Shown here: piece by piece, positions 1,640 to 14,556 of the stretch
Layout of the letters: each line of letters begins with the position of its first letter
Position numbering within the stretch: the first letter of the stretch is position 1
Assembly: GCA_051439425.1 (NCBI GenBank)
Contig: JBFRWD010000086.1
Coordinates: forward strand, 1-14,556
From: Synechococcus sp.
GTDB lineage: Bacteria > Cyanobacteriota > Cyanobacteriia > Thermostichales > PCC-7336
Length of the DNA: 14,556 nt
Direction: 5' to 3'
Program-made: the position numbers and the translations under genes
The notes under the pieces: generated by a model
Databases searched by the model: none
Told to the model about the DNA's origin: nothing
Seen by the model: only the letters and a program-made list of their open reading frames with translations

Positions 1640-2245
1640 CTACTGTTGAGTAATGGTTTGACAGTCTGTTTGGGTGGAGGTTTGAGCTAGATAAGCAGCC
1701 GGATCGACGCGACCCCAGCCGTTAGGTAGACGTTCGTAAACCGTGAAATGTAGATGCGGGCCGGTGCTGGTGCCGGTACTTCCCACGTAGCCGATCGCGT
1801 CTCCCCGTCGGACGGACTGCCCTGGAGCGACAGCCAGTTGACTCATATGGCCGTAGATGGTTTTGTGCGAACCGTGGTTCAGCACCACCTGTAATCCAAT
1901 GGCTCCTCCGTGATTGGCCGTTTCAACGGTTCCAGCCTCGCTGCTATAAATCGGTGTCCCCATTGGAGCGGCAATATCGATGCCGCTATGGAAATTCGAG
2001 GTGCCGTAGATGGGATGAGTCCGCCAGCCGAAATCGCTAGTCACCGGCCCCGAAACTGGAGTGATAGGTGATGACTGAATGGTGGAGCCCAGAATCTCCT
2101 CAATTCGGGAGCGGTACGGAGATGGGCCAAACGAACCGGCAGCTACGCGACAAATCCAGCGATTGTTGGGTTGTGCGATTGCACTCGGGGCAACGCTCGA
2201 TAGAACGGATAACGCTATGGCAAGCGTTGCAAGTGGCTTGACCAT
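1640..2245 (-). CDS. Secreted M23-family zinc metallopeptidase (peptidoglycan endopeptidase), about 201 aa
   Basis: Signal peptide MVKPLATLAIALSVLSSVAPSAIA. M23 motifs VTSDFGWRTHP, HSGID (HxxxD), YGHM and GSTGTSTGPHLHF (HxH), and the terminal VDP..YL are intact. ATG 2245 is preferred over the track start at 2275 because it gives a normal signal peptide. Confidence 0.92.
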   Translation of the reverse strand: MVKPLATLAIALSVLSSVAPSAIAQPNNRWICRVAAGSFGPSPYRSRIEEILGSTIQSSPITPVSGPVTSDFGWRTHPIYGTSNFHSGIDIAAPMGTPIYSSEAGTVETANHGGAIGLQVVLNHGSHKTIYGHMSQLAVAPGQSVRRGDAIGYVGSTGTSTGPHLHFTVYERLPNGWGRVDPAAYLAQTSTQTDCQTITQQ

Positions 2246-2406
2246 TTGAGGGCAATTCCAAAGCGAAGAGAACACAAGCTAGCGGCAACGAGCAACAGGA
2301 CGATTGCGGTTGAGGCTGATAGCGGATTGGACAGTGCAACCTCTGCAAACGGTGCGGCCACTGCGATGCCAAGCCCACCCGTGAGGACAAAAAACCAGAT
2401 ATTCAT
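2215..2406 (-). CDS. Small hydrophobic protein, 63 aa, two predicted TM segments
   Basis: ATG at the edge of the AT-rich spacer. Two hydrophobic stretches and a basic C-terminal tail. Overlaps the M23 gene start by 31 nt. Confidence 0.55.
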   Translation of the reverse strand: MNIWFFVLTGGLGIAVAAPFAEVALSNPLSASTAIVLLLVAASLCSLRFGIALKWSSHLQRLP

Positions 2407-2746: not shown

Positions 2747-3364
2747 ATGAATAGATTGCAAATAGACGGTGGGAGCCCTTATCCTCAAAAGGGCTTTCAA
2801 AAGTTGCTGAGCCCACAGTATTGGAACGAACAATTTGCCCTATTTAAACCTAGAGATATCGCCCTAACCTTTGGAGTTACAGTCAGTCTGTTTGGGGAAT
2901 GTCTATCTCAAGGGCCGCTCAAAGGTGCATTGATTCCATTGTTGCTGATTTTCAGCGCCAGCATGGTATTTCTCGCCTGTTTAGACGGCATCAACAACAA
3001 GTATCGTCGCTGGCTAGCCACGATCTATGCCGGAGGTGCGGTCGCCGCTATTCCTTTACAACCAGTGCTGGCTACCCCCATTGGTGGGGCGTCTTGCGCT
3101 TCTGGCCTGATGGGTGATTTGGCTTCCTATACCGAACAAATCATCACGGCCATCACCAACGATGCGACATTTGCCAGTCAAGCCTGTCTGATTTTTCAAT
3201 TACTGGCGGTCTTGATTGTTGTGGCCATTGTGGGCAGTTTTATCTACCTGATTTTTCAAATCAGAGATGGTTCCGAATTCCGTACCGCCGCCAATCCCCT
3301 ATTCATGACCGTGTTTGTCACGGTCGGAATTTTGCTGACCACCCGTTTGGTTCTGCAAGTGTGA
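2747..3364 (+). CDS. Multi-pass membrane protein; putative VirB2-like pilin precursor
   Basis: SD GGAG; first gene before the virB3/virB4-like gene. The C-terminal half has pilin-like topology: two hydrophobic helices separated by a short charged loop (QIRDGSEFRTAANP), following a possible signal-peptidase site (QPVLA). Confidence 0.6.
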   Translation: MNRLQIDGGSPYPQKGFQKLLSPQYWNEQFALFKPRDIALTFGVTVSLFGECLSQGPLKGALIPLLLIFSASMVFLACLDGINNKYRRWLATIYAGGAVAAIPLQPVLATPIGGASCASGLMGDLASYTEQIITAITNDATFASQACLIFQLLAVLIVVAIVGSFIYLIFQIRDGSEFRTAANPLFMTVFVTVGILLTTRLVLQV

Positions 3365-3403: not shown

Positions 3404-6400
3404 ATGACAGAGCCCGGTAAACGACAAACACAAATCAATCCCTACATCGGTAGATCGATTGGGTTTGCCATTGTGCCGCAAAGTCAAATCTTCACCGCTG
3501 CCATCACCGTAGCGGTCGGCTGCGTGTTTCTTGCCTTGGGATTCCCCCCACAGATCTTATTTCTCACCACCCTGTGGCCGTTCGCCACCCTGTGGCTGCT
3601 GACGGGAGATCGACCCTATCTGTTTTACGAGGGCTTCTACCGCCAGCGGGTGTATGCCGTACTGCGCCTCAAAGAAGAAACCTCAGCCACCACAGGCTTA
3701 CCCGAAATCCCCAATCTAAACCGTCAGATTCGCGTACCGGAAGTAGTGGATGGACGCATGAAAACCCTTCAACGAACCGTTGCCGAAACCCGTCTCGATC
3801 TAGTCGCCTACGTGCAGTTTCCCGCCGAAAGCGTTGGAGCGGGGCAAACCAGCGATCTCGAAACGGTGGGTGCTCGGTTACTGAGAGACCACCGCAACCA
3901 ATACTTCCTGACGTTTAGCTGGTGGCTCGACGGTATTCCGGCGTCGGTGTCGGAAGCCAATGCGGATCGGTATCTGGACGATATTGGCTCTCTACTCAAG
4001 CAACTGGCGAAAGACGAGCTCCTGAGCGTCAACTACTCCTGCTTTTCCAATCTGCGGGAAACCCTGCAGCAACAGGAATTTCAAACCGCCGTTTCTCGCC
4101 ATAACCCCATATTGCAGGTGCTCGATTTGAGCCGACTGCAACGCAAGCAATCCCTTAGCCAGACCAAAACCTTCAAACGGCGGGACATTCTGCTAGAGAT
4201 TCAATTGCCGTTAGGAGAAAGTCACAGCGTTAAAGCGGATCTGTTGGGGTCCATCTTCAAGCAATTGGATCGCCTGCTGCGGATTGTGGCCGGTCAAGCG
4301 GAATCGGACACCTACTACCGGTTATTGGAACTGCTGCAATCGGGCCATCGCCGCTATTTCAACTGGTGCAACGAAATCCAAAAGCTGCCCTTTCAAGCCC
4401 ATCCCCTCACCGCCGAGCAGCTAGCGGATAACGATTACGCCGACCACCATGCGTTGAGTCGAGAGGGACAAGTTCCCAGCCTGATTGTCTGCGACCGCGA
4501 GGTGAAAGCCTTTCGTCACGTCCCGGTCAGAAACGGACTGCACGCCCGCTCGGTCATCTTCCACCCCGAACGGGGAGTTGCCGCCTTCCCACAGGTGCAT
4601 CGCCGCTATCTCTATATTCCCGCTCTGGGCAAATACGTCGGTCTGTTGGATCTGGGCAAGGTGGGTGCCGGTCAGCGGTTTAACGGAGCCCGCAAACATC
4701 TGTTGAGCCTGTGGAACGTGCAGGACTTGCCGTTCATGTACGACTACAAACTGATCACCCACGTCTCCAGCTCGTCGGATGCCAGAGCCAGATTCGAACT
4801 GGAACGTCTAACCCGCAACAGCATGCACAAAGGCGATCGCGCCAGTCAGGAGCGGACGGTAGACGTGCATTCCGATAAGCGATTGGGCCATAGTCTGGAT
4901 GCCCGCAAAGCGATTGAAGATGGGGCGACATTGATCGCCGCCACGCAAGTCTTGATTCTCTATCGCGATGACCTCAGCCAGCTCAACGATGACCTGGTCT
5001 CTGCCGCTCAAATGCTGACGCGTTATCAATCGGCTGCCCGCATCGATAGCTACGTCCTGGACTACTATCTCTCCACCCTGCCCACAACGGCCTCTGCCTC
5101 CCTAACCAAACCGTTTGACCGGCGACAGGAGTACATGACCAATGACGATCGTCCCGGAGCTGAATTTAACGGTCTGGTTCCGCTGATCAAAAACAGCAAT
5201 ACCAGTCACGATGCCACCGGACTGTTAATGCTGACGGCGAAAGGGGGCGAGCCCTATCAGCTGGACATTCTCAAGCAACCGGCTCACATCGGCATCTTTG
5301 CCACCACCCGAGGGGGCAAAAGCATTCTGATCGGCTCCTTATTTGAGGAAATGCTGCTGAATGGGGTGCCGATTGTCGCGATGGACTTTCCCAAGCCCAC
5401 CGATGGGTCATCAACGTTTCGGGACTTCACCGAAATGGTGCAGAAATTCGGAGTGAAGGCCGCTTACTACGACACGCGGCGGGTGGGAAACAATATTCTC
5501 AAGCTGCCGGATTTGCGGCAATTTGAGGCCAAGATTGCTCGATTGGACGCTCGGTTAGAGACGGCTTCTGACGATGAGCTACCGTCGATTAACCGACAAC
5601 TGGAACAGGCCAACGAGGGGTACAACAATCGCCTGCGAGCGGTGGAATCGGCCCAACTGCAATCCCTGGCAATTATCGTCAACGAGCAGGGAGAATTCGC
5701 CTCAATCGTTCGCAATACGCTGGGCAATATCCTGCGAGATTTTCATGCCGATGACACCATTTGCAGCCGCTATCGAGAGGCGATTGAAGGAGGCATTGGC
5801 AGTGCCGCTCACCAGGCCATCCCCACCCTGCACGATTTCACCGCCTTTGCCCGCGACTGGATTGCCAACTACCGCGACAACGACAGCCATCTGGATACCC
5901 CAGAGATTCAAGCGGCAATGGCCCGCATCCTGCACCAACTGAGTGCGGTGCTCAGTGGCCCGCTGGCCCACTCGATTGCCTCTCCCGGCGAGATTCCCAC
6001 CGACCTCAATTTCCTGTGTTTTGCCGTCCGCTCGGTGGACGACCCCACTGAAGTAGCGCTGACTGCCGTGAGTGCCTACAGCGCTCTACTGCTGAAGGCG
6101 TTGGAATCCCCCCGCTCCTGCTTCTGCGTGGATGAAGGGGCTATCTTCTTCCGCCATGAAGCCATCTCTAACTTGTTGGGAGAAATCAGTGCCAACGGCC
6201 TCAAGTGGGGGGCCAGGGTAGTGCTGGGGGCTCAGACGGCAGAGGATGTCAAAAAGTCCCCCTCAGCGGACAAGATTCTCAAAAACATGCAGTACAAGTT
6301 GGTGGGATTTATCACCAACGAAGCCAAACCCTCCTTCGAAGAATTCGGCTTTCCCGAGCACCTCCTGGATAAATACAGCGACACCACCACCAAGCCCTGT

Positions 6401-6691
6401 CACAAAACCATTTGCAGCAAGTGGTTGGTGTCGAACCACGGTCAGATTACCGAAGCGAAGCTCTATCCCAGTCTCACCTTGCTGGCCTTGTGCGCCAACA
6501 ATCCCGACGAACAAGACTTAAGAGATTTCTATTTCGACCGCTATCCGGGTGAGCCGTTGGTGGCGCTCAAACATTTTCGGCAGCGCTACATCCACTGCCT
6601 GCAGCATCAGCTTCCCCTGACCCCCCCCGTCACAGAACTAGAGACCCCCGCACTGGAGTCGACCAGGGAGGAGTACAGCTATGCGTCCTAA
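3404..6691 (+). CDS. virB4: VirB4-family T4SS ATPase with a fused N-terminal VirB3-like membrane domain, 1095 aa
   Basis: Walker A IFATTRGGKS (core 5300-5323), DFPKPTDGSSTF, Walker B FCVDEGA, followed by ANGLKWGARVVLGAQ. Size and position are typical. The N-terminal ~90 aa contain two hydrophobic segments. Confidence 0.85.
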   Translation: MTEPGKRQTQINPYIGRSIGFAIVPQSQIFTAAITVAVGCVFLALGFPPQILFLTTLWPFATLWLLTGDRPYLFYEGFYRQRVYAVLRLKEETSATTGLPEIPNLNRQIRVPEVVDGRMKTLQRTVAETRLDLVAYVQFPAESVGAGQTSDLETVGARLLRDHRNQYFLTFSWWLDGIPASVSEANADRYLDDIGSLLKQLAKDELLSVNYSCFSNLRETLQQQEFQTAVSRHNPILQVLDLSRLQRKQSLSQTKTFKRRDILLEIQLPLGESHSVKADLLGSIFKQLDRLLRIVAGQAESDTYYRLLELLQSGHRRYFNWCNEIQKLPFQAHPLTAEQLADNDYADHHALSREGQVPSLIVCDREVKAFRHVPVRNGLHARSVIFHPERGVAAFPQVHRRYLYIPALGKYVGLLDLGKVGAGQRFNGARKHLLSLWNVQDLPFMYDYKLITHVSSSSDARARFELERLTRNSMHKGDRASQERTVDVHSDKRLGHSLDARKAIEDGATLIAATQVLILYRDDLSQLNDDLVSAAQMLTRYQSAARIDSYVLDYYLSTLPTTASASLTKPFDRRQEYMTNDDRPGAEFNGLVPLIKNSNTSHDATGLLMLTAKGGEPYQLDILKQPAHIGIFATTRGGKSILIGSLFEEMLLNGVPIVAMDFPKPTDGSSTFRDFTEMVQKFGVKAAYYDTRRVGNNILKLPDLRQFEAKIARLDARLETASDDELPSINRQLEQANEGYNNRLRAVESAQLQSLAIIVNEQGEFASIVRNTLGNILRDFHADDTICSRYREAIEGGIGSAAHQAIPTLHDFTAFARDWIANYRDNDSHLDTPEIQAAMARILHQLSAVLSGPLAHSIASPGEIPTDLNFLCFAVRSVDDPTEVALTAVSAYSALLLKALESPRSCFCVDEGAIFFRHEAISNLLGEISANGLKWGARVVLGAQTAEDVKKSPSADKILKNMQYKLVGFITNEAKPSFEEFGFPEHLLDKYSDTTTKPCHKTICSKWLVSNHGQITEAKLYPSLTLLALCANNPDEQDLRDFYFDRYPGEPLVALKHFRQRYIHCLQHQLPLTPPVTELETPALESTREEYSYAS

Positions 6692-9657: not shown

Positions 9658-9799
9658 CCAACCATTCACCGACCGGCTGCCCGCCTGGGTATTTTGGCCG
9701 CTGTTTGCCGCGCTCCTTGCCTCCTCAGCAGGCTCAGCAGTCGGACTGTACCTGCTCAATTCCTCCCCCGAACCGGTAAATTCTCATGAACAACTCTGA
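9650..9799 (+). CDS. Unannotated 49-aa single-TM microprotein
   Basis: MTSQPFTDRLPAWVFWPLFAALLASSAGSAVGLYLLNSSPEPVNSHEQL*. SD GGGAG at 9637-9641. Overlaps the upstream gene by 8 nt and the downstream gene by 14 nt. Confidence 0.6.
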   Translation: MTSQPFTDRLPAWVFWPLFAALLASSAGSAVGLYLLNSSPEPVNSHEQL

Positions 9800-11228
9800 C
9801 TCACACCATCCATTAGAAGCGGACATGGCCGCTGAACTGTCAGGATTTGACGGGTTCAATCTGGTGCAGCCAGGGGAGATGCCGGTGGACAGCGATGCGG
9901 TGCCCTGGTGGAAGCGGCCCATCTACCGGCTGGCTATTGTCGGGGTGGTGCTGTTTATCCCGATTTTCACCATCGCCAATTCTGTCACCGGGGGCGGTGC
10001 TCGGCAGGCGGCCTCTGAAGAGGCTGTGGCCTCGACTGCCTCGGAACCGTCCGAATCGGGTCAGGAAGTGGATCGGTTGCTGCAGGAGAATATGTTGCTG
10101 CAGCAGCGGGTCAATGCTTACGAAGGCACCCGTAGCGAGCTGCCGATGGACGGGCAGCCATCTGAGGCGGACGGGCAGCCTTCACTTCCTCCCATCGAGG
10201 TACCGGAAACACCGGCTGCTGCGACGGACGAGGGTATCACCGATCCGAGCGCTCCAGTGGCGACCGCTCCCAGCTTGTCTGCGAACGAGCGGTGGAGTCG
10301 AGCCTCGGGTAGCGGCAGTTTTGGCTCGATTCCTGGCGACCAAGTGGCGGCAGGTCCCTTGTCCAATCCGGCTGCGGTGACGCCCACGGACAATCCTGGG
10401 CAAGTCCCCGCTCTGACGGCTCAGCTGACCTCGGGTGAGCGGCAGCGCTACAACCCGTTCTCTGTGTCAGAGACGTTCGATACTCCCGGTTTGGATGCAA
10501 CGGGCGAGGGGGAGGCGATCTCGTCAGTTCCCGGCTCTTCAGTTCCGGGGTCTTCAGTGGCGATTGACTCCGAAGCCGAGAACTTCATCTTGCACGGTGT
10601 CATTCGCCGCACGGTTCCGGCAGGAGCAACCGCCACCGGGACCTTCGATGCCCCGTTCTACTGGGTTCCGGAGCTGGGGGATATCAGCTACCGGATCGTG
10701 ACGGATGCGGCGGTGAACGACCGACAGGGGAATGTGGCCTTCCCCACCGGGACAACGTTTGTCTCTTCGGTGGAACAAGTTTTGGACAACGGCTTGGTGC
10801 TGCTGGCTGTCCGCGAGGCAATTACCCCCGATGGTGTCACCACTCCCCTAGAAGGAGTCAGTGTCAAAGGGGAAGCGGGCCATCCCTTGGTGGCTCAACA
10901 GCAACGAATTACCGATGGGGTCGCTCGCCGCGATGTCATGACCGCTGTCTTGGGAGGGCTGTCGGCGGCGGCAGACGAATTAACCAGAGCTTCATCGTCA
11001 AGCTCCTACAGTTTCAGCTCGATTGGCAGTGCGGGCCGGACAACGATTGATGATGATTCCCGCAATCCGGGGGCGGCGTTTGTGGGGGGAGGGATTGATG
11101 CCGTGTTGCCGGATATTCAACAGCGCAACCGCGATGCGGTGCGACGGCTGCAGGAGACCGAGCAGATTTGGACGCTCGACCCCGAGCAGCCGGTGGAGAT
11201 TGTGTTTAACCAAACCGTTCAGCTTTAA
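9786..11228 (+). CDS. virB10: TrbI/VirB10-family T4SS core-complex protein, 480 aa
   Basis: Acidic N-terminal tail, one TM segment, short coiled coil and long Pro/Ser/Ala linker. C-terminal beta domain (VPAGATATG, VAFPTGTTF, VKGEAGHPLVA) with a Gly-rich helical hairpin, ending PVEIVFNQTVQL. Confidence 0.75.
   Translation: MNNSDSHHPLEADMAAELSGFDGFNLVQPGEMPVDSDAVPWWKRPIYRLAIVGVVLFIPIFTIANSVTGGGARQAASEEAVASTASEPSESGQEVDRLLQENMLLQQRVNAYEGTRSELPMDGQPSEADGQPSLPPIEVPETPAAATDEGITDPSAPVATAPSLSANERWSRASGSGSFGSIPGDQVAAGPLSNPAAVTPTDNPGQVPALTAQLTSGERQRYNPFSVSETFDTPGLDATGEGEAISSVPGSSVPGSSVAIDSEAENFILHGVIRRTVPAGATATGTFDAPFYWVPELGDISYRIVTDAAVNDRQGNVAFPTGTTFVSSVEQVLDNGLVLLAVREAITPDGVTTPLEGVSVKGEAGHPLVAQQQRITDGVARRDVMTAVLGGLSAAADELTRASSSSSYSFSSIGSAGRTTIDDDSRNPGAAFVGGGIDAVLPDIQQRNRDAVRRLQETEQIWTLDPEQPVEIVFNQTVQL
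10148..10180 (+). repeat. In-frame duplication with 21-bp period in the virB10 linker (DGQPS x2)
   Basis: GGACGGGCAGCC at 10148 and 10169. Confidence 0.7.
10521..10559 (+). repeat. In-frame 15-bp tandem repeat in the virB10 linker (SSVPG SSVPG SSV)
   Basis: TCGTCAGTTCCCGGC TCTTCAGTTCCGGGG TCTTCAGTG. Confidence 0.7.
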
Positions 11229-11243
11229 GTTTTGGAGGTCGAG

Positions 11244-12521
11244 ATGAGAGTTCAATCCTTAGGCCCGTTAGTTTGGGTGCCATTGGCTGCAACGGCGGCG
11301 GTGGGCAGTCCCATGCCTGTGTGGGCTCAGTCGTTCCAAACCACTCCAGCCACGTATGAGGCTTCGACCGCGTCGTTTGCCAATGGCGAGTACGGCACCA
11401 TCCGGCTCTATCCGGGATACGGCTTCACGCTCGATTTCTCCCAAACCGGTCAGGTGGTGCAGCGGGCCTGGCTGGATGACATGAGCGCCATCGGGATTGA
11501 CTTTTCGAATGGAACGCAGGAGACGATTGAGGCGCAATTTGTGCATTTGAAGTTGATCCCGGAGGTCAACTTTCAGGAGGTGTTGCGCAGTCTCGACGGC
11601 GGCACTCTGCTCACTCTGATTGCCTACGATCCCGTGCGCAATACCCAGCATCGCTATCAGTTCCGCATCTTCCCGGCTCAAGGGGTGCCCACCCACACGG
11701 CTTTGAATATCCAGCCGGAAGTGGCACCGATCGCCACACCGGCATCGCTATCCACAACCTTTTCGGTCAATGGCCTGGTGGATGCTCGGCCCGAGCATAT
11801 CCAAATGGGCTTGGGCAGTTTCATGAGCGAGCTGAGTCCCGACCAGATGCAACAGATTGGCGATGTCAGCGGTCGGGTAAACGAGCTGATTGCGCTGATG
11901 CATAACGGTACCGAAGCGACGGCTGCAGCGGTGCAGGTTGGCCTCTCGATGCAGATCGTGAACTACTTCGCGATGCGCGGGCTACAGGCATCACCTGCCA
12001 ATCCCCTCGGACTGATTGATGAGGTTCTCCCTCTGGAGCTGCAAGGGTATACCGATAGTGCGATTCCGGGTGAGGCGTCCAGTCCACAGCCAGCGCTGGC
12101 AGCTCCATCCATTCCCCCTCCCTTGGAGCGTTCCCAACAACCATCGACTGTCCCTCAGTTTGAAGCGACCGAGCCTGAGATACCGCCTTCAGATGACGAT
12201 CTTGTCTCGAAAGCCGACTCAGCCGCCATCTATCAAGCTCGAGTGCAAGAGTTTCAAGCGGAACTCGACCGACTGCCCGCGCCGGTTCGACTGGATGCCG
12301 ATGGCCGTCAGATGGTCAACTTCATCAAAATCGGCTCGGGAATTTATGGCAGAGACCATCACACCGACCTCACCTATCAACCTCGCGTTGTCGCTCTGCT
12401 GGCCTATCTCGAAGCCGGTCAATCACTCCCGGAAGCGTCTCGACAGGCTCAGTTTGATGAAGCCGAAACCAGCCAAATGCTGACGCTGGCTGAAGAAGCG
12501 CTAGACAGCATCGATTGGTAA
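11244..12521 (+). CDS. Secreted T4SS-associated protein, putative VirB9-like N-terminal beta domain plus two helical modules, about 425 aa
   Basis: SD GGAGG at 11234-11238 supports ATG 11244. Signal peptide ending PVWA. Beta-rich domain (TIRLYPGYGFTLDF, QRAWLDD, LLTLIA, YQFRI). Directly follows virB10. Confidence 0.6.
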   Translation: MRVQSLGPLVWVPLAATAAVGSPMPVWAQSFQTTPATYEASTASFANGEYGTIRLYPGYGFTLDFSQTGQVVQRAWLDDMSAIGIDFSNGTQETIEAQFVHLKLIPEVNFQEVLRSLDGGTLLTLIAYDPVRNTQHRYQFRIFPAQGVPTHTALNIQPEVAPIATPASLSTTFSVNGLVDARPEHIQMGLGSFMSELSPDQMQQIGDVSGRVNELIALMHNGTEATAAAVQVGLSMQIVNYFAMRGLQASPANPLGLIDEVLPLELQGYTDSAIPGEASSPQPALAAPSIPPPLERSQQPSTVPQFEATEPEIPPSDDDLVSKADSAAIYQARVQEFQAELDRLPAPVRLDADGRQMVNFIKIGSGIYGRDHHTDLTYQPRVVALLAYLEAGQSLPEASRQAQFDEAETSQMLTLAEEALDSIDW

Positions 12522-12527
12522 GCGGTG

Positions 12528-14556
12528 ATGAAGCTGGGTATCGATAGGGCATTCACAGCAACCATATCGTTGCCGATCGCGGCATCCTGCGCGATGGCGG
12601 CTGCGATTCAGTTTGGCCTGCCTGCATCAGCAGAATCGCGCCAGCGGGAGCGGGTGTGTGTCCAATTGCCTGCGGGGGTGTACGACTTAGTCGGCCGCCC
12701 GTTCAACCGGAACGGTTATTACTGTTTCGAGGATGAGCTGGACCGCAGCTACTTTTTACTGGAATATTTCCTCTCGGAATCGGGATTACCCCCCGAAGAA
12801 ACGCTGGGCATTCTTGGTGAAATTCAAGCGGTCGAGGGCGAGATCCGCGAGTTTATCGATGCCAATTCGATGTCCGAAACCATCAATGAGTACATCCAGC
12901 ATTATCAAGCGTCCACCCTAATCAAATTGGCCGATGACTATCTGTTCCCCGAGGGCTTCGATCCGACAGGGGCATTGCAAGAGGTCATTCCCGTTGATAT
13001 TGAGCAAATCGAACCGCTGGTGGATGCAGCGCTGGATGGGTCTCTCGAAGACATCGGATTCGATCTGCTGGAGGCTGCAGCTCCCACCATGACCGCTCAG
13101 ATCGATGGGGCGGTAGCACAGTATCTGGGCGGACAACTGGGAGAGGTGGTGGATGCCGACTTCATGGTGGGCTTGACCGAGACGATTGCTCCGGTGATTC
13201 AGGGGGATATTGATGGGCTACTGACCAGTGGGATTCTGGGAGATCGGTTCGACCAACTGTTGAACGAGCGCCTGAGCGCACAACTCTCCGGAGTGTTGGG
13301 AGACTCGGTAGCGGGGGAGCTGTCTTCGACACTCTCGGTACTGCTGCAGGGGGGAGATATTCAACAGACATTGGTCGCTAATGCCAGCAGTTTGGTCAGG
13401 GACAGGATTGAGGAGGTGGTCTTTGATGCGATTCAAACCAGTTTGGGGAACCAGATTGGGACGGTACTCGACAATTCGGTGCTCTCGGGTCTGGACGGTG
13501 CCTTGAATGAAGCGTTGGGGTTGGGATTGACCGATCTGCTTTCGGGGTCGCTCTCTCTGTCCGCAGGCTCGATTCGGGATGCAGCGGTGTCCACCGTCCG
13601 CACCATCGCCACCGATGCGCTGATTGCCAATACTCCGTTTGGGCAGTGGTCGGAACAGATTGGGGATTTGTTGGCCGAGCGGTTTGGGTTGGCCGGCATC
13701 GAACAGGCGATTGGTGTGGAAGGGTTGGAGTTGGTGGCGATTGCTTACGAGCTGCTTACTACACCGGGATTGTGGGCCTATTTGGATATTCCGCTGGGGT
13801 CGGCTGAGGGGGTGATTGACTACACCATCTCAGGCAGTGATGTGGAGGGGTGGTCGGTTCCTTGTTTGGAGTTATCGGATTGCGACCACATCGAGTTGGT
13901 CAGCGATATGTGGCCGGGGGTTCACGGTCGCCGCTGGGTTGCCTCCCAACAGATGGTTGAAGGGGGGCATAACTTTCCGTTGGACTTGCTGAATGGCGGG
14001 CAAGAGCCTACAGGTCGTCATTTGTTTGGCGATTTTAAGTTGGTGGTGCGCAGTGTGGATGAAGCGGCTGGGTCTGCTTCGTTTGGAATCTACATGCGTT
14101 TTTGTGTGAGCTTCTTTTTCTACGAGTCTTGCAGTCCTTATTTCATCGGGCCGTTGCCGTGGTTTTCGGCTAGGGAAAAGGATTTTGTGTTGATAGGGAA
14201 GGGAGGTTCAGCCCCGATTGATATTCCTGCTGGAGAAGGGCCACCGCCGCCACCAAATACTCCGGTCGATCCTCAGCCCACGCCAACTCCCGAGCCCATA
14301 CCGACTCCTTCGCCCGAGCCAACTCCCTCCGTTGAGGAATGTACTTCACCGCTGCATCCAGCTCCGGGTTATCCGGTTACCAGCAGCTTCGGATATCGAA
14401 CACACCCAATAACAGGTCTCGAAAGGCTTCACACAGGTATAGATTTGGGTGTCCCAGTCGGAGTTCCAATTCGGGCATCATGCTCAGGAAGTGTAGTCAT
14501 TGCTAATGAAAATGGTGGGTATGGGCTAATGGTTACCATCCAGCACGATGCTTCAT
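12528..14556 (+). CDS. Large secreted multidomain protein with a C-terminal M23 peptidase domain (3' partial, at least 676 aa; absent from the ORF track)
   Basis: Manual translation shows an uninterrupted frame from ATG 12528 to the window end. Signal peptide ending LPASA, acidic Leu/Gly-rich region, Cys-containing domain (TISGSDVEG...EPTGRH...CSPYFIGPLP), Pro/Thr linker, then PVTSSFGYRTHPITG...HTGIDLG...GGYGLMVTIQH. Confidence 0.9.
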   Translation, partial: MKLGIDRAFTATISLPIAASCAMAAAIQFGLPASAESRQRERVCVQLPAGVYDLVGRPFNRNGYYCFEDELDRSYFLLEYFLSESGLPPEETLGILGEIQAVEGEIREFIDANSMSETINEYIQHYQASTLIKLADDYLFPEGFDPTGALQEVIPVDIEQIEPLVDAALDGSLEDIGFDLLEAAAPTMTAQIDGAVAQYLGGQLGEVVDADFMVGLTETIAPVIQGDIDGLLTSGILGDRFDQLLNERLSAQLSGVLGDSVAGELSSTLSVLLQGGDIQQTLVANASSLVRDRIEEVVFDAIQTSLGNQIGTVLDNSVLSGLDGALNEALGLGLTDLLSGSLSLSAGSIRDAAVSTVRTIATDALIANTPFGQWSEQIGDLLAERFGLAGIEQAIGVEGLELVAIAYELLTTPGLWAYLDIPLGSAEGVIDYTISGSDVEGWSVPCLELSDCDHIELVSDMWPGVHGRRWVASQQMVEGGHNFPLDLLNGGQEPTGRHLFGDFKLVVRSVDEAAGSASFGIYMRFCVSFFFYESCSPYFIGPLPWFSAREKDFVLIGKGGSAPIDIPAGEGPPPPPNTPVDPQPTPTPEPIPTPSPEPTPSVEECTSPLHPAPGYPVTSSFGYRTHPITGLERLHTGIDLGVPVGVPIRASCSGSVVIANENGGYGLMVTIQHDAS

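Follow-up and report, generated by a model that had tools for sequence, protein, structure and literature searches.

How a cyanobacterial type IV secretion system (T4SS) opens the cell wall for its own channel is the question raised by the last gene of a 14,556-nt stretch of Synechococcus sp. DNA (contig JBFRWD010000086.1; "the window" below means this whole stretch). The gene follows VirB4-like, TrbI/VirB10-like and VirB9-like genes and runs off the window end. Judged by its sequence, it is a member of the alr7212 family, a known marker of the MPF_C class of T4SSs, and the last part visible in the window is the beginning of a Peptidase_M23 domain. We consider it probable, though well short of certain, that the encoded protein is an M23-tailed alr7212-family subunit of the MPF_C machinery that serves it as a dedicated peptidoglycan endopeptidase and thus as a functional analogue of VirB1 and PrgK.

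A real gene cut by the window end

An open reading frame (ORF) listing with open ends allowed gives a frame at 12525..14555 (+ strand; 677 aa, GTG start, open at its 3' end), and translation from the ATG at 12528 to position 14556 yields 676 codons without a stop. The first-pass annotation of this DNA had described a hidden gene of at least 676 aa that starts 6 nt after the virB9-like stop. The start is exactly there (TAA of the upstream ORF at 12519-12521, ATG at 12528, a 6-nt gap) and the gene is real, while its being "hidden" is only an effect of the window edge: the frame runs off the window end and so drops out of any list restricted to ORFs with a stop. A public gene caller predicts the identical 676-aa protein (protein database entry P0001). 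The frame is not a product of chance, since 498 cluster representatives match it at E<=1e-10 in an exhaustive HMMER search, with a common core at query aa ~410-560. This search replaced a word-indexed protein search that had returned one fragment only, low-complexity words swamping the candidates.

The protein begins with a hydrophobic segment (residues 8-33, ending in ASA-E, and a helix in the AlphaFold2 (AF2) model) that would be either a signal peptide cleaved at the ASA-E site or a membrane anchor. A cysteine pair follows, then an acidic region at aa 76-400 (Leu 15%, Gly 11%, 53 Asp+Glu vs 9 Lys+Arg), four further cysteines (C446/C452/C526/C535) within the conserved core, a linker at aa 571-612 that consists of 43% Pro and 14% Thr (aa 567-601 are modelled as disordered), and finally the M23 domain (Table 1). 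All of these parts lie where the first-pass annotation had placed them, down to the HxxxD motif at 14430-14444, and the T4SS operon setting that it had described is borne out by the genes upstream. Its further proposal of a tethered endopeptidase fits this layout of hydrophobic N-terminus, long spacer, disordered Pro/Thr linker and M23 domain.

The alr7212 family and its linkage to MPF_C genes

To which family does the gene belong? In a tblastn search of plasmids, aa 384-561 of the window protein match WP_010999767 of plasmid pCC7120alpha (38% identity, E 2e-21), and sequences related to the region around these residues are found on many plasmids of cyanobacteria (Nostoc, Calothrix, Tolypothrix, Leptolyngbya, Picosynechococcus and others), in agreement with the first-pass annotation. 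On pCC7120alpha of Nostoc PCC 7120, the gene of WP_010999767 (398 aa) stands after TrbI/VirB10 and a 246-aa gene and directly before the coupling-protein gene. Since virB4 of this plasmid is alr7206 and virD4 is alr7213 (PMC8600333), and since the MPF_C profiles in the supplement of Guglielmini et al. 2014 run from alr7204 to alr7212 (PMC4027160), the protein with the four cysteines is alr7212. The window gene occupies the same operon slot, after the VirB9-like gene, as alr7212, which lies directly upstream of the coupling-protein gene alr7213. The row for alr7212 in that supplement reads "hypothetical protein", names no Pfam entry and gives 535 aa as the mean length, 0.74 as the occurrence frequency and mostly one transmembrane domain (Guglielmini et al. 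2014, PMC4027160). The family is thus less new than the first-pass annotation had suggested: both it and its T4SS linkage are already in print (Guglielmini et al. 2014, PMC4027160), and RefSeq labels M23-tailed members "M23 family metallopeptidase". Leptolyngbya NIES-3755 and Picosynechococcus PCC 7003 have a syntenic gene (760 or 656 aa) with a complete M23 end, again followed by a coupling-protein gene.

Of 600 candidate stretches in a genome scan, 568 were confirmed; the 80 loci retained are all cyanobacterial, and together with 3 plasmid loci they form the set of 83 used below. For linkage, we counted the loci in which 8.8 kb or more of sequence precedes the gene, 60 in all (57 from genomes and 3 from plasmids), with local profiles iterated from the T4SS proteins that the window itself encodes. 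T4SS genes are present in 56 of these 60 loci, with VirB4 found in 47, VirB10 in 52, the VirB9-like protein in 51 and the type IV coupling protein (T4CP) in 55. Mostly unlinked homologs, which the first-pass annotation had named as a result that would speak against its reading, are therefore not what we see, given that only 4 of 60 loci are without any T4SS gene within reach. These four (L041, L049, L073, L075) encode 754-810-aa forms, and their machinery may lie beyond the fetched flank, since sister loci L040 and L057 have the T4CP 7-9 kb upstream.

Several genomes carry 2 to 4 copies of the locus (such as L050/L053, L042/L071, and L012, L015, L055 and L063 in one Nodosilinea genome), and L050/L053, L042/L071, L039 and L061 lie on chromosomes of 8-9 Mb. 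Because there are multiple copies, some of them inside large chromosomes, this pattern suggests integrated MPF_C elements besides plasmids. In one locus (L005:9275-11167), the gene is on the strand opposite to the T4SS genes and its product has a unique tail of 242 aa that ends in a hydrophobic, membrane-anchor-like segment.

The M23 domain and the part beyond the window

Is the M23 domain an active peptidase? Pfam Peptidase_M23 (PF01551) matches aa 634-674 with E 8e-8 and 32.8 bits (cut-off 28.7), covering profile positions 2-42 of 96, and the HxxxD motif reads HTGID at aa 635-639 (nt 14430-14444). The partial domain is well formed in the AF2 full-length model, for which Foldseek returned matches to NMB0315 and ShyA only, through the M23 piece, and the PDB sequence profile also matched the window family through its M23 part alone.

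Relatives supply what the window cuts off. The closest, P0005, is 83% identical over aa 404-676 and continues through YAHL and GPHLHFEV to a stop 58 residues past the window end; aligned with TagE and the DD-endopeptidase ShyA, it has its motifs at the corresponding positions. It thus carries the HxH motif, whose absence the first-pass annotation had named as a result that would refute its reading. P0006 (56% identical over aa 371-673 by BLASTP) and P0007 (46% identical) have full M23 domains as well, and all three, together with the syntenic plasmid genes P0003 and P0004, retain HxxxD, the histidine of "yaHL" and HLHFE. Both zinc motifs are present in 24 of the 27 M23-bearing tails of the loci. 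Because the M23 motifs of P0005, P0006 and P0007 are complete, the active site of the window gene is likely intact too, and presumably so is its missing C-terminus. Beyond these relatives, the best one in the genome scan is 52% identical, and a megablast search of positions 11000-14556 against plasmids gave no match.

The nearest ortholog is split into two ORFs, P0002 as the N-terminal piece, whose last ~57 residues are unrelated to the window protein, and P0005 as the C-terminal piece, which starts at the equivalent of aa 403. For P0002, P0005 and the VirB9-like ortholog P0156 the longest contig is 4,943 bp in every case, and because of this shared value we suspect that all three come from one contig, in which a frameshift or an assembly error interrupts the gene.

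An M23 domain can also regulate or bind the wall without cutting it, as in the LytM domain of PrgK and in EnvC, NlpD and DipM. We give little credence to such a role here. It could draw on the degenerate LytM domain of PrgK, described as down-regulating the neighbouring muramidase domain (PMC11323569), on the non-catalytic EnvC, DipM and SpoIIQ among the PDB matches and on the fact that HxxxD is the one motif visible in the window. Yet this HxxxD is intact, and a purely regulatory M23 domain is unlikely because all catalytic motifs are intact in the five relatives named above and both zinc motifs in nearly all M23-bearing tails.

The four-Cys domain

The family is defined by the domain around the second set of cysteines, hereafter the four-Cys domain, which is the sole part common to every member, including 14 that end without a tail. 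Its cysteines are kept in 83, 83, 82 and 82 of the 83 locus proteins and are probably disulfide-bonded; E427, E456, W470, E493, R497 and K504 are invariant in 83/83, and D420, E512 and E550 are near-invariant (81-83 of 83). From an alignment of 103 sequences, AF2 models it confidently as a mostly beta domain (Table 1). Pfam, NCBIfam and the PDB sequence profile leave the domain uncovered, the ESM Atlas gave no usable match, and Foldseek against PDB and BFVD returned 0 matches at E<=0.001, with TM scores of at most 0.23. The predicted structure is thus provisionally without a known fold as compared with PDB and BFVD, a lack of matches that is not the same as a new fold. A double-psi beta-barrel (DPBB)/barwin-like transglycosylase fold was considered for this domain and dropped when Foldseek gave no support.

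This conservation would also be compatible with the four-Cys domain being the enzyme itself, for example a new glycan-cleaving fold, or else a peptidoglycan-binding module, with the M23 domain as a mere add-on. Invariant or near-invariant acidic and basic residues (E427, E456, E493, R497 and K504; D420, E512 and E550), presence in every member down to the tail-less ones, and a confident fold model all speak for this idea. We nevertheless find it doubtful: the domain resembles no hydrolase or binding domain in sequence or fold (Pfam, NCBIfam, PDB, BFVD, Atlas), a barwin-like or DPBB fold is unsupported by Foldseek, and the conserved positions are largely Gly, Pro and Cys, which suits a structural role. 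In our reading, the four-Cys domain would dock on the machine or the wall, with the tail as an interchangeable tool.

Variable tails

What follows the four-Cys domain varies widely. Among 67 scanned proteins of the 150 best HMMER matches listed, a sample biased toward M23 because the query includes part of this domain, the tails are M23 in 45 cases, GH19-like in 13 (8 of them below the Pfam cut-off), VanY in 3, Ntox50 in 1, a borderline CdiA_C in 1 and a coupling-protein fusion in 1, with nothing in 14. In the genome sample, where this bias is smaller, the 76 complete ORFs (the 83 loci minus 3 plasmid loci and 4 truncated ORFs) divide into 23 with M23, 10 with GH19 only and 43 with no Pfam match. 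Sorted by length and motif, the 83 loci comprise 14 without a tail, 26 with a tail that we call type A, 25 with M23, 7 with GH19 and 9 with other tails, as well as 2 with GH19 plus a weak M23 and one more with type A plus M23. For the GH19 tails, chitinases and endolysins in the PDB gave confirming matches at 1e-10. Tails with a recognisable domain are therefore almost all wall hydrolases.

The type A domain spans ~210 aa with three invariant cysteines, a nearly invariant fourth and the conserved motif RLIERVGQ.HFGG..IPID. Roughly one member in three has it after the four-Cys domain (L012, L016, L034, L046, L050 and ~20 more loci). It occurs also at aa ~420-640 of L001:13218-15500 and has no match in Pfam or PDB sequences. 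A motif resemblance had pointed to an SLT-like transglycosylase; this assignment was rejected as the PDB profile and Pfam gave nothing. Longer forms of 810 aa (L040, L041, L051, L057, L059) and 846 aa (L020, L026, L052) have GH19 followed by a weak second signal, either NlpC/P60- or CHAP-like or M23-like, and their gene lies downstream rather than upstream of the coupling-protein gene, in a different operon order.

Could these tails be aimed at another cell? The conserved part might sit at the exposed distal end of the T4SS, as a tip or carrier from which the M23 tail breaches the wall of the partner cell, much as phage tail lysins and "evolved" type VI secretion system (T6SS) spike proteins breach the wall of a recipient. 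The first-pass annotation had raised the same option. Polymorphic tails on a conserved core would fit it, with tail types needing 16 changes on the domain tree against a minimum of 6, and so would a toxin domain in tail position (Ntox50 at aa 658-755 of P0025, E 1e-25, in place of the hydrolase; a borderline CdiA_C at aa 649-714 of P0080, 26.5 bits vs a cut-off of 26.6) and the M23 domains of phage tail or internal proteins among the PDB matches (Gp16 9m7n, 9k2v; hub 8kea). Toxin tails are rare, however (1-2 of 67), tail-less forms exist, the N-terminal hydrophobic segment suits Sec export or inner-membrane anchoring but not surface display, and the starred branches of the tree force just one origin of M23 tails. 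On balance we see recipient-directed wall breaching as a tentative possibility.

A broader version of this idea, which strikes us as rather doubtful, would make the four-Cys domain a fold not seen before and a universal T4SS carrier of interchangeable warheads (M23, GH19, VanY, orphan domains and the occasional nuclease-type toxin) that are directed toward a mating partner or rival. If it were true, MPF_C systems would provide, among T4SSs, a counterpart to evolved VgrG spikes or to the lysins of phage tail tips. On the domain tree, the window protein groups with L004 and L044 (support 98/96), all three of which are M23-tailed; the bootstrap is not fully settled and the window protein sits on a long branch.

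A lineage-specific head and the adhesin proposal

The N-terminal heads differ as much as the tails. Most members have a head of ~250 aa with IPGL-type repeats, while the N-terminal half of the window protein, including its 400-aa head, has 0 phmmer matches among the 83 locus homologs. It shares aa 31-182 and 371-410 with P0006; the insert between them (aa ~183-370) is absent from P0006 and P0007 and otherwise found only in P0002. In the AF2 full-length model, the head is helical with low confidence (predicted local distance difference test (pLDDT) 29-57 over aa ~140-380).

The first-pass annotation had taken the protein for a possible adhesin fused to a hydrolase. In such a role, the acidic Leu/Gly-rich region would mediate contact between mating cells. 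Gram-positive T4SSs do use adhesins according to Guglielmini et al. 2014 (PMC4027160), and the region is long and of unusual composition. The details point elsewhere: Pfam and NCBIfam hold no adhesin family match for the window protein, self-comparison of aa 76-400 gave no off-diagonal high-scoring segment pair and hence no internal repeat, and the region, a lineage-specific insert missing from P0006, P0007 and all 83 locus homologs, is modelled as a low-confidence helix. An adhesin function therefore appears very improbable to us.

Proposed role and points that weigh against it

How might an M23-tailed alr7212-family endopeptidase act? The hydrophobic N-terminus would take the protein across the inner membrane or anchor it there. 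Beyond a long, mostly lineage-specific helical spacer, the conserved beta-rich four-Cys domain would hold it at the machine or the wall, from where the M23 domain on its disordered Pro/Thr leash of ~40 residues may reach peptidoglycan and cut its peptide cross-links. Such cutting would open the wall locally where the channel must pass and so let the channel be built. The protein would thereby correspond in function to VirB1 of Proteobacteria and to PrgK/TraG of Gram-positives, with endopeptidase instead of glycosidase chemistry.

VirB1 homologs are reported only in monoderm classes by Guglielmini et al. 2014 (PMC4027160), which leaves MPF_C without an assigned wall enzyme. The Gram-positive VirB1-like hydrolases are described as large, N-terminally anchored, multi-domain proteins (PMC4027160, PMC12857230), and one of them, PrgK, is brought to the channel as an anchored multi-domain wall hydrolase by PrgL (PMC11323569). 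No SLT or lysozyme-like domain was found in P0001 with Pfam or NCBIfam at E<=0.01 or by fold searches, and no SLT/VirB1-type domain among the 13 window ORFs scanned.

Four points weigh against a T4SS-dedicated endopeptidase. The window stops before the catalytic histidine and HxH, so that the integrity of this very copy is unproven. The LytM domain of PrgK is catalytically dead and regulatory (PMC11323569), so that the mere presence of an M23 domain in a T4SS protein does not establish enzymatic activity. Nor can cutting the wall with a fused enzyme be the function of the family as a whole, because 14 of 83 homologs are tail-less and 26 more have a type A tail only, with no detectable enzyme signature. 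Finally, the literature that we searched yielded no experiment on any alr7212-family member.

Comparison with known proteins

The prototype WP_010999767 shares with the window protein the homologous four-Cys domain, the operon slot and an N-terminal hydrophobic segment, but it ends right after the four-Cys domain, without M23, and its head (~250 aa with IPGL-type repeats) shows no homology with the 400-aa head of the window protein. In WP_065715472 (Picosynechococcus PCC 7003) and BAU15905 (Leptolyngbya NIES-3755), the four-Cys domain is followed, as in the window protein, by M23 with HxxxD, and here also HxH, and the gene holds the same operon position ahead of the T4CP; both are 39-43% identical to the window protein over the C-terminal third only, their N-terminal halves differ, and in BAU15905 a type A domain is inserted ahead of M23, after the four-Cys domain.

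Among proteins with a described role, PrgK (pCF10), TraG (pIP501) and Orf14 (Tn916) are, in the accounts cited above, also large multi-domain membrane-anchored hydrolases of conjugative T4SSs. They are without a four-Cys domain and serve monoderm hosts, in contrast to the diderm cyanobacterium here, and the LytM/M23 domain of PrgK is inactive, without HxxxD and HxH, whereas the cyanobacterial tails keep the zinc motifs. VirB1 of MPF_T systems has the same proposed role of local wall opening for T4SS assembly (PMC4027160). VirB1 differs in chemistry, cutting glycan strands with an SLT fold that has no match in the window protein, while M23 cuts peptide cross-links. The best sequence and fold matches of the catalytic domain, with zinc and catalytic motifs aligned, are ShyA, MepM and TagE, which differ in being housekeeping growth enzymes untied to a secretion system and in having other N-terminal domains.

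Other genes in the window

The VirB9-like and alr7212-family genes are probably translationally coupled, given the 6-nt gap between them. The Pfam CagX/VirB9 model (PF03524) matches 8 of 39 members of the VirB9-like family (best E 4e-7) and not the 425-aa window copy on its own, and a PF03524-related profile search of PDB sequences gave no match. At 425 aa, the window protein is longer than most of the 65 family matches in the loci (240-300 aa); a Pro-rich, acidic C-terminal extension, common only to its closest relatives P0155-P0158, accounts for the difference. The VirB4-like protein is long as well (1095 aa vs 939 aa in pCC7120alpha) and matches standard VirB4/TraC models at E 1e-4 to 6e-3. 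An N-terminal fusion in it is possible because no separate small VirB3-like ORF was seen between the ORF at 2747-3364 and position 3404.

At the other end of the window lies a second, stand-alone M23 peptidase, complete, with a signal-like N-terminus and 51% identical to the M23 domain of P0005. Such an ORF was found within the 10-kb flanks of 0 of 83 loci; the window copy itself is 11.4 kb from the four-Cys domain, beyond such a flank.

Table 1. Genes of interest in the window and parts of the alr7212-family protein (window coordinates; pTM, predicted template modelling score)
Feature	Coordinates	Strand	Basis or remark
Second stand-alone secreted M23 peptidase, 211-aa ORF	1640..2275	-	Pfam E 4e-29; HSGID, HLHFT
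VirB4-like ATPase (alr7206 family)	3404..6691	+	Weak TraC/VirB4/DUF87 matches; phmmer to L003 5420-8239 = alr7206 = virB4
TrbI/VirB10-like gene (alr7210 family)	9786..11228	+	Pfam TrbI E 8e-7, below cut-off; L003 homolog at same position annotated TrbI/VirB10
VirB9-like gene (alr7211 family)	11244..12521	+	6 nt upstream of the alr7212-family gene; same position as WP_010999766 in pCC7120alpha
alr7212-family gene, M23-tailed, cut by window end	12528..14556	+	676 of expected ~734 codons; length from P0005
Predicted N-terminal export segment, aa 1-36	12528..12635	+	Sequence; AF2 helix 7-29
Cys-pair hairpin (C44, C66) and helical segment, aa 37-182	12636..13073	+	32% identity to P0006 over aa 31-182; pLDDT 62-86 at aa 40-130
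Acidic Leu/Gly-rich lineage-specific insert, aa ~183-370	13074..13637	+	Not in P0006, only in P0002; helical, pLDDT 29-57
Four-Cys domain, family-defining, aa ~410-560	13755..14207	+	Alignment; AF2 pLDDT 91.8, pTM 0.86
Flexible Pro/Thr-rich linker, aa ~567-612	14226..14363	+	Composition; pLDDT <50 over aa 567-601
Peptidase_M23, first 42 of 96 profile positions	14427..14549	+	Pfam; HTGID at 14430-14444

Implications for MPF_C systems

Neither a functional reading of alr7212, nor a description of the four-Cys domain or the modular hydrolase tails, nor any relevant paper on cyanobacteria, VirB4 and M23 together was found in the literature searched, and the main text of a 2025 review on T4SS nomenclature contains neither "cyanobacteria" nor "MPFC" (PMC12857230). 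Conjugation in cyanobacteria has barely been studied, and MPF_C stands out as the one T4SS class without an assigned wall-opening enzyme. M23 enzymes cut peptide cross-links, and for diderms, cyanobacteria have unusually thick walls with a high degree of cross-linking, which would explain the need for an endopeptidase. The four-Cys domain that these proteins share is widespread (498 cluster representatives, 568 genome stretches) and folds confidently in prediction without a Foldseek match to any solved structure. As a modular carrier of wall hydrolases, alr7212 would be a candidate for the VirB1 analogue of MPF_C.

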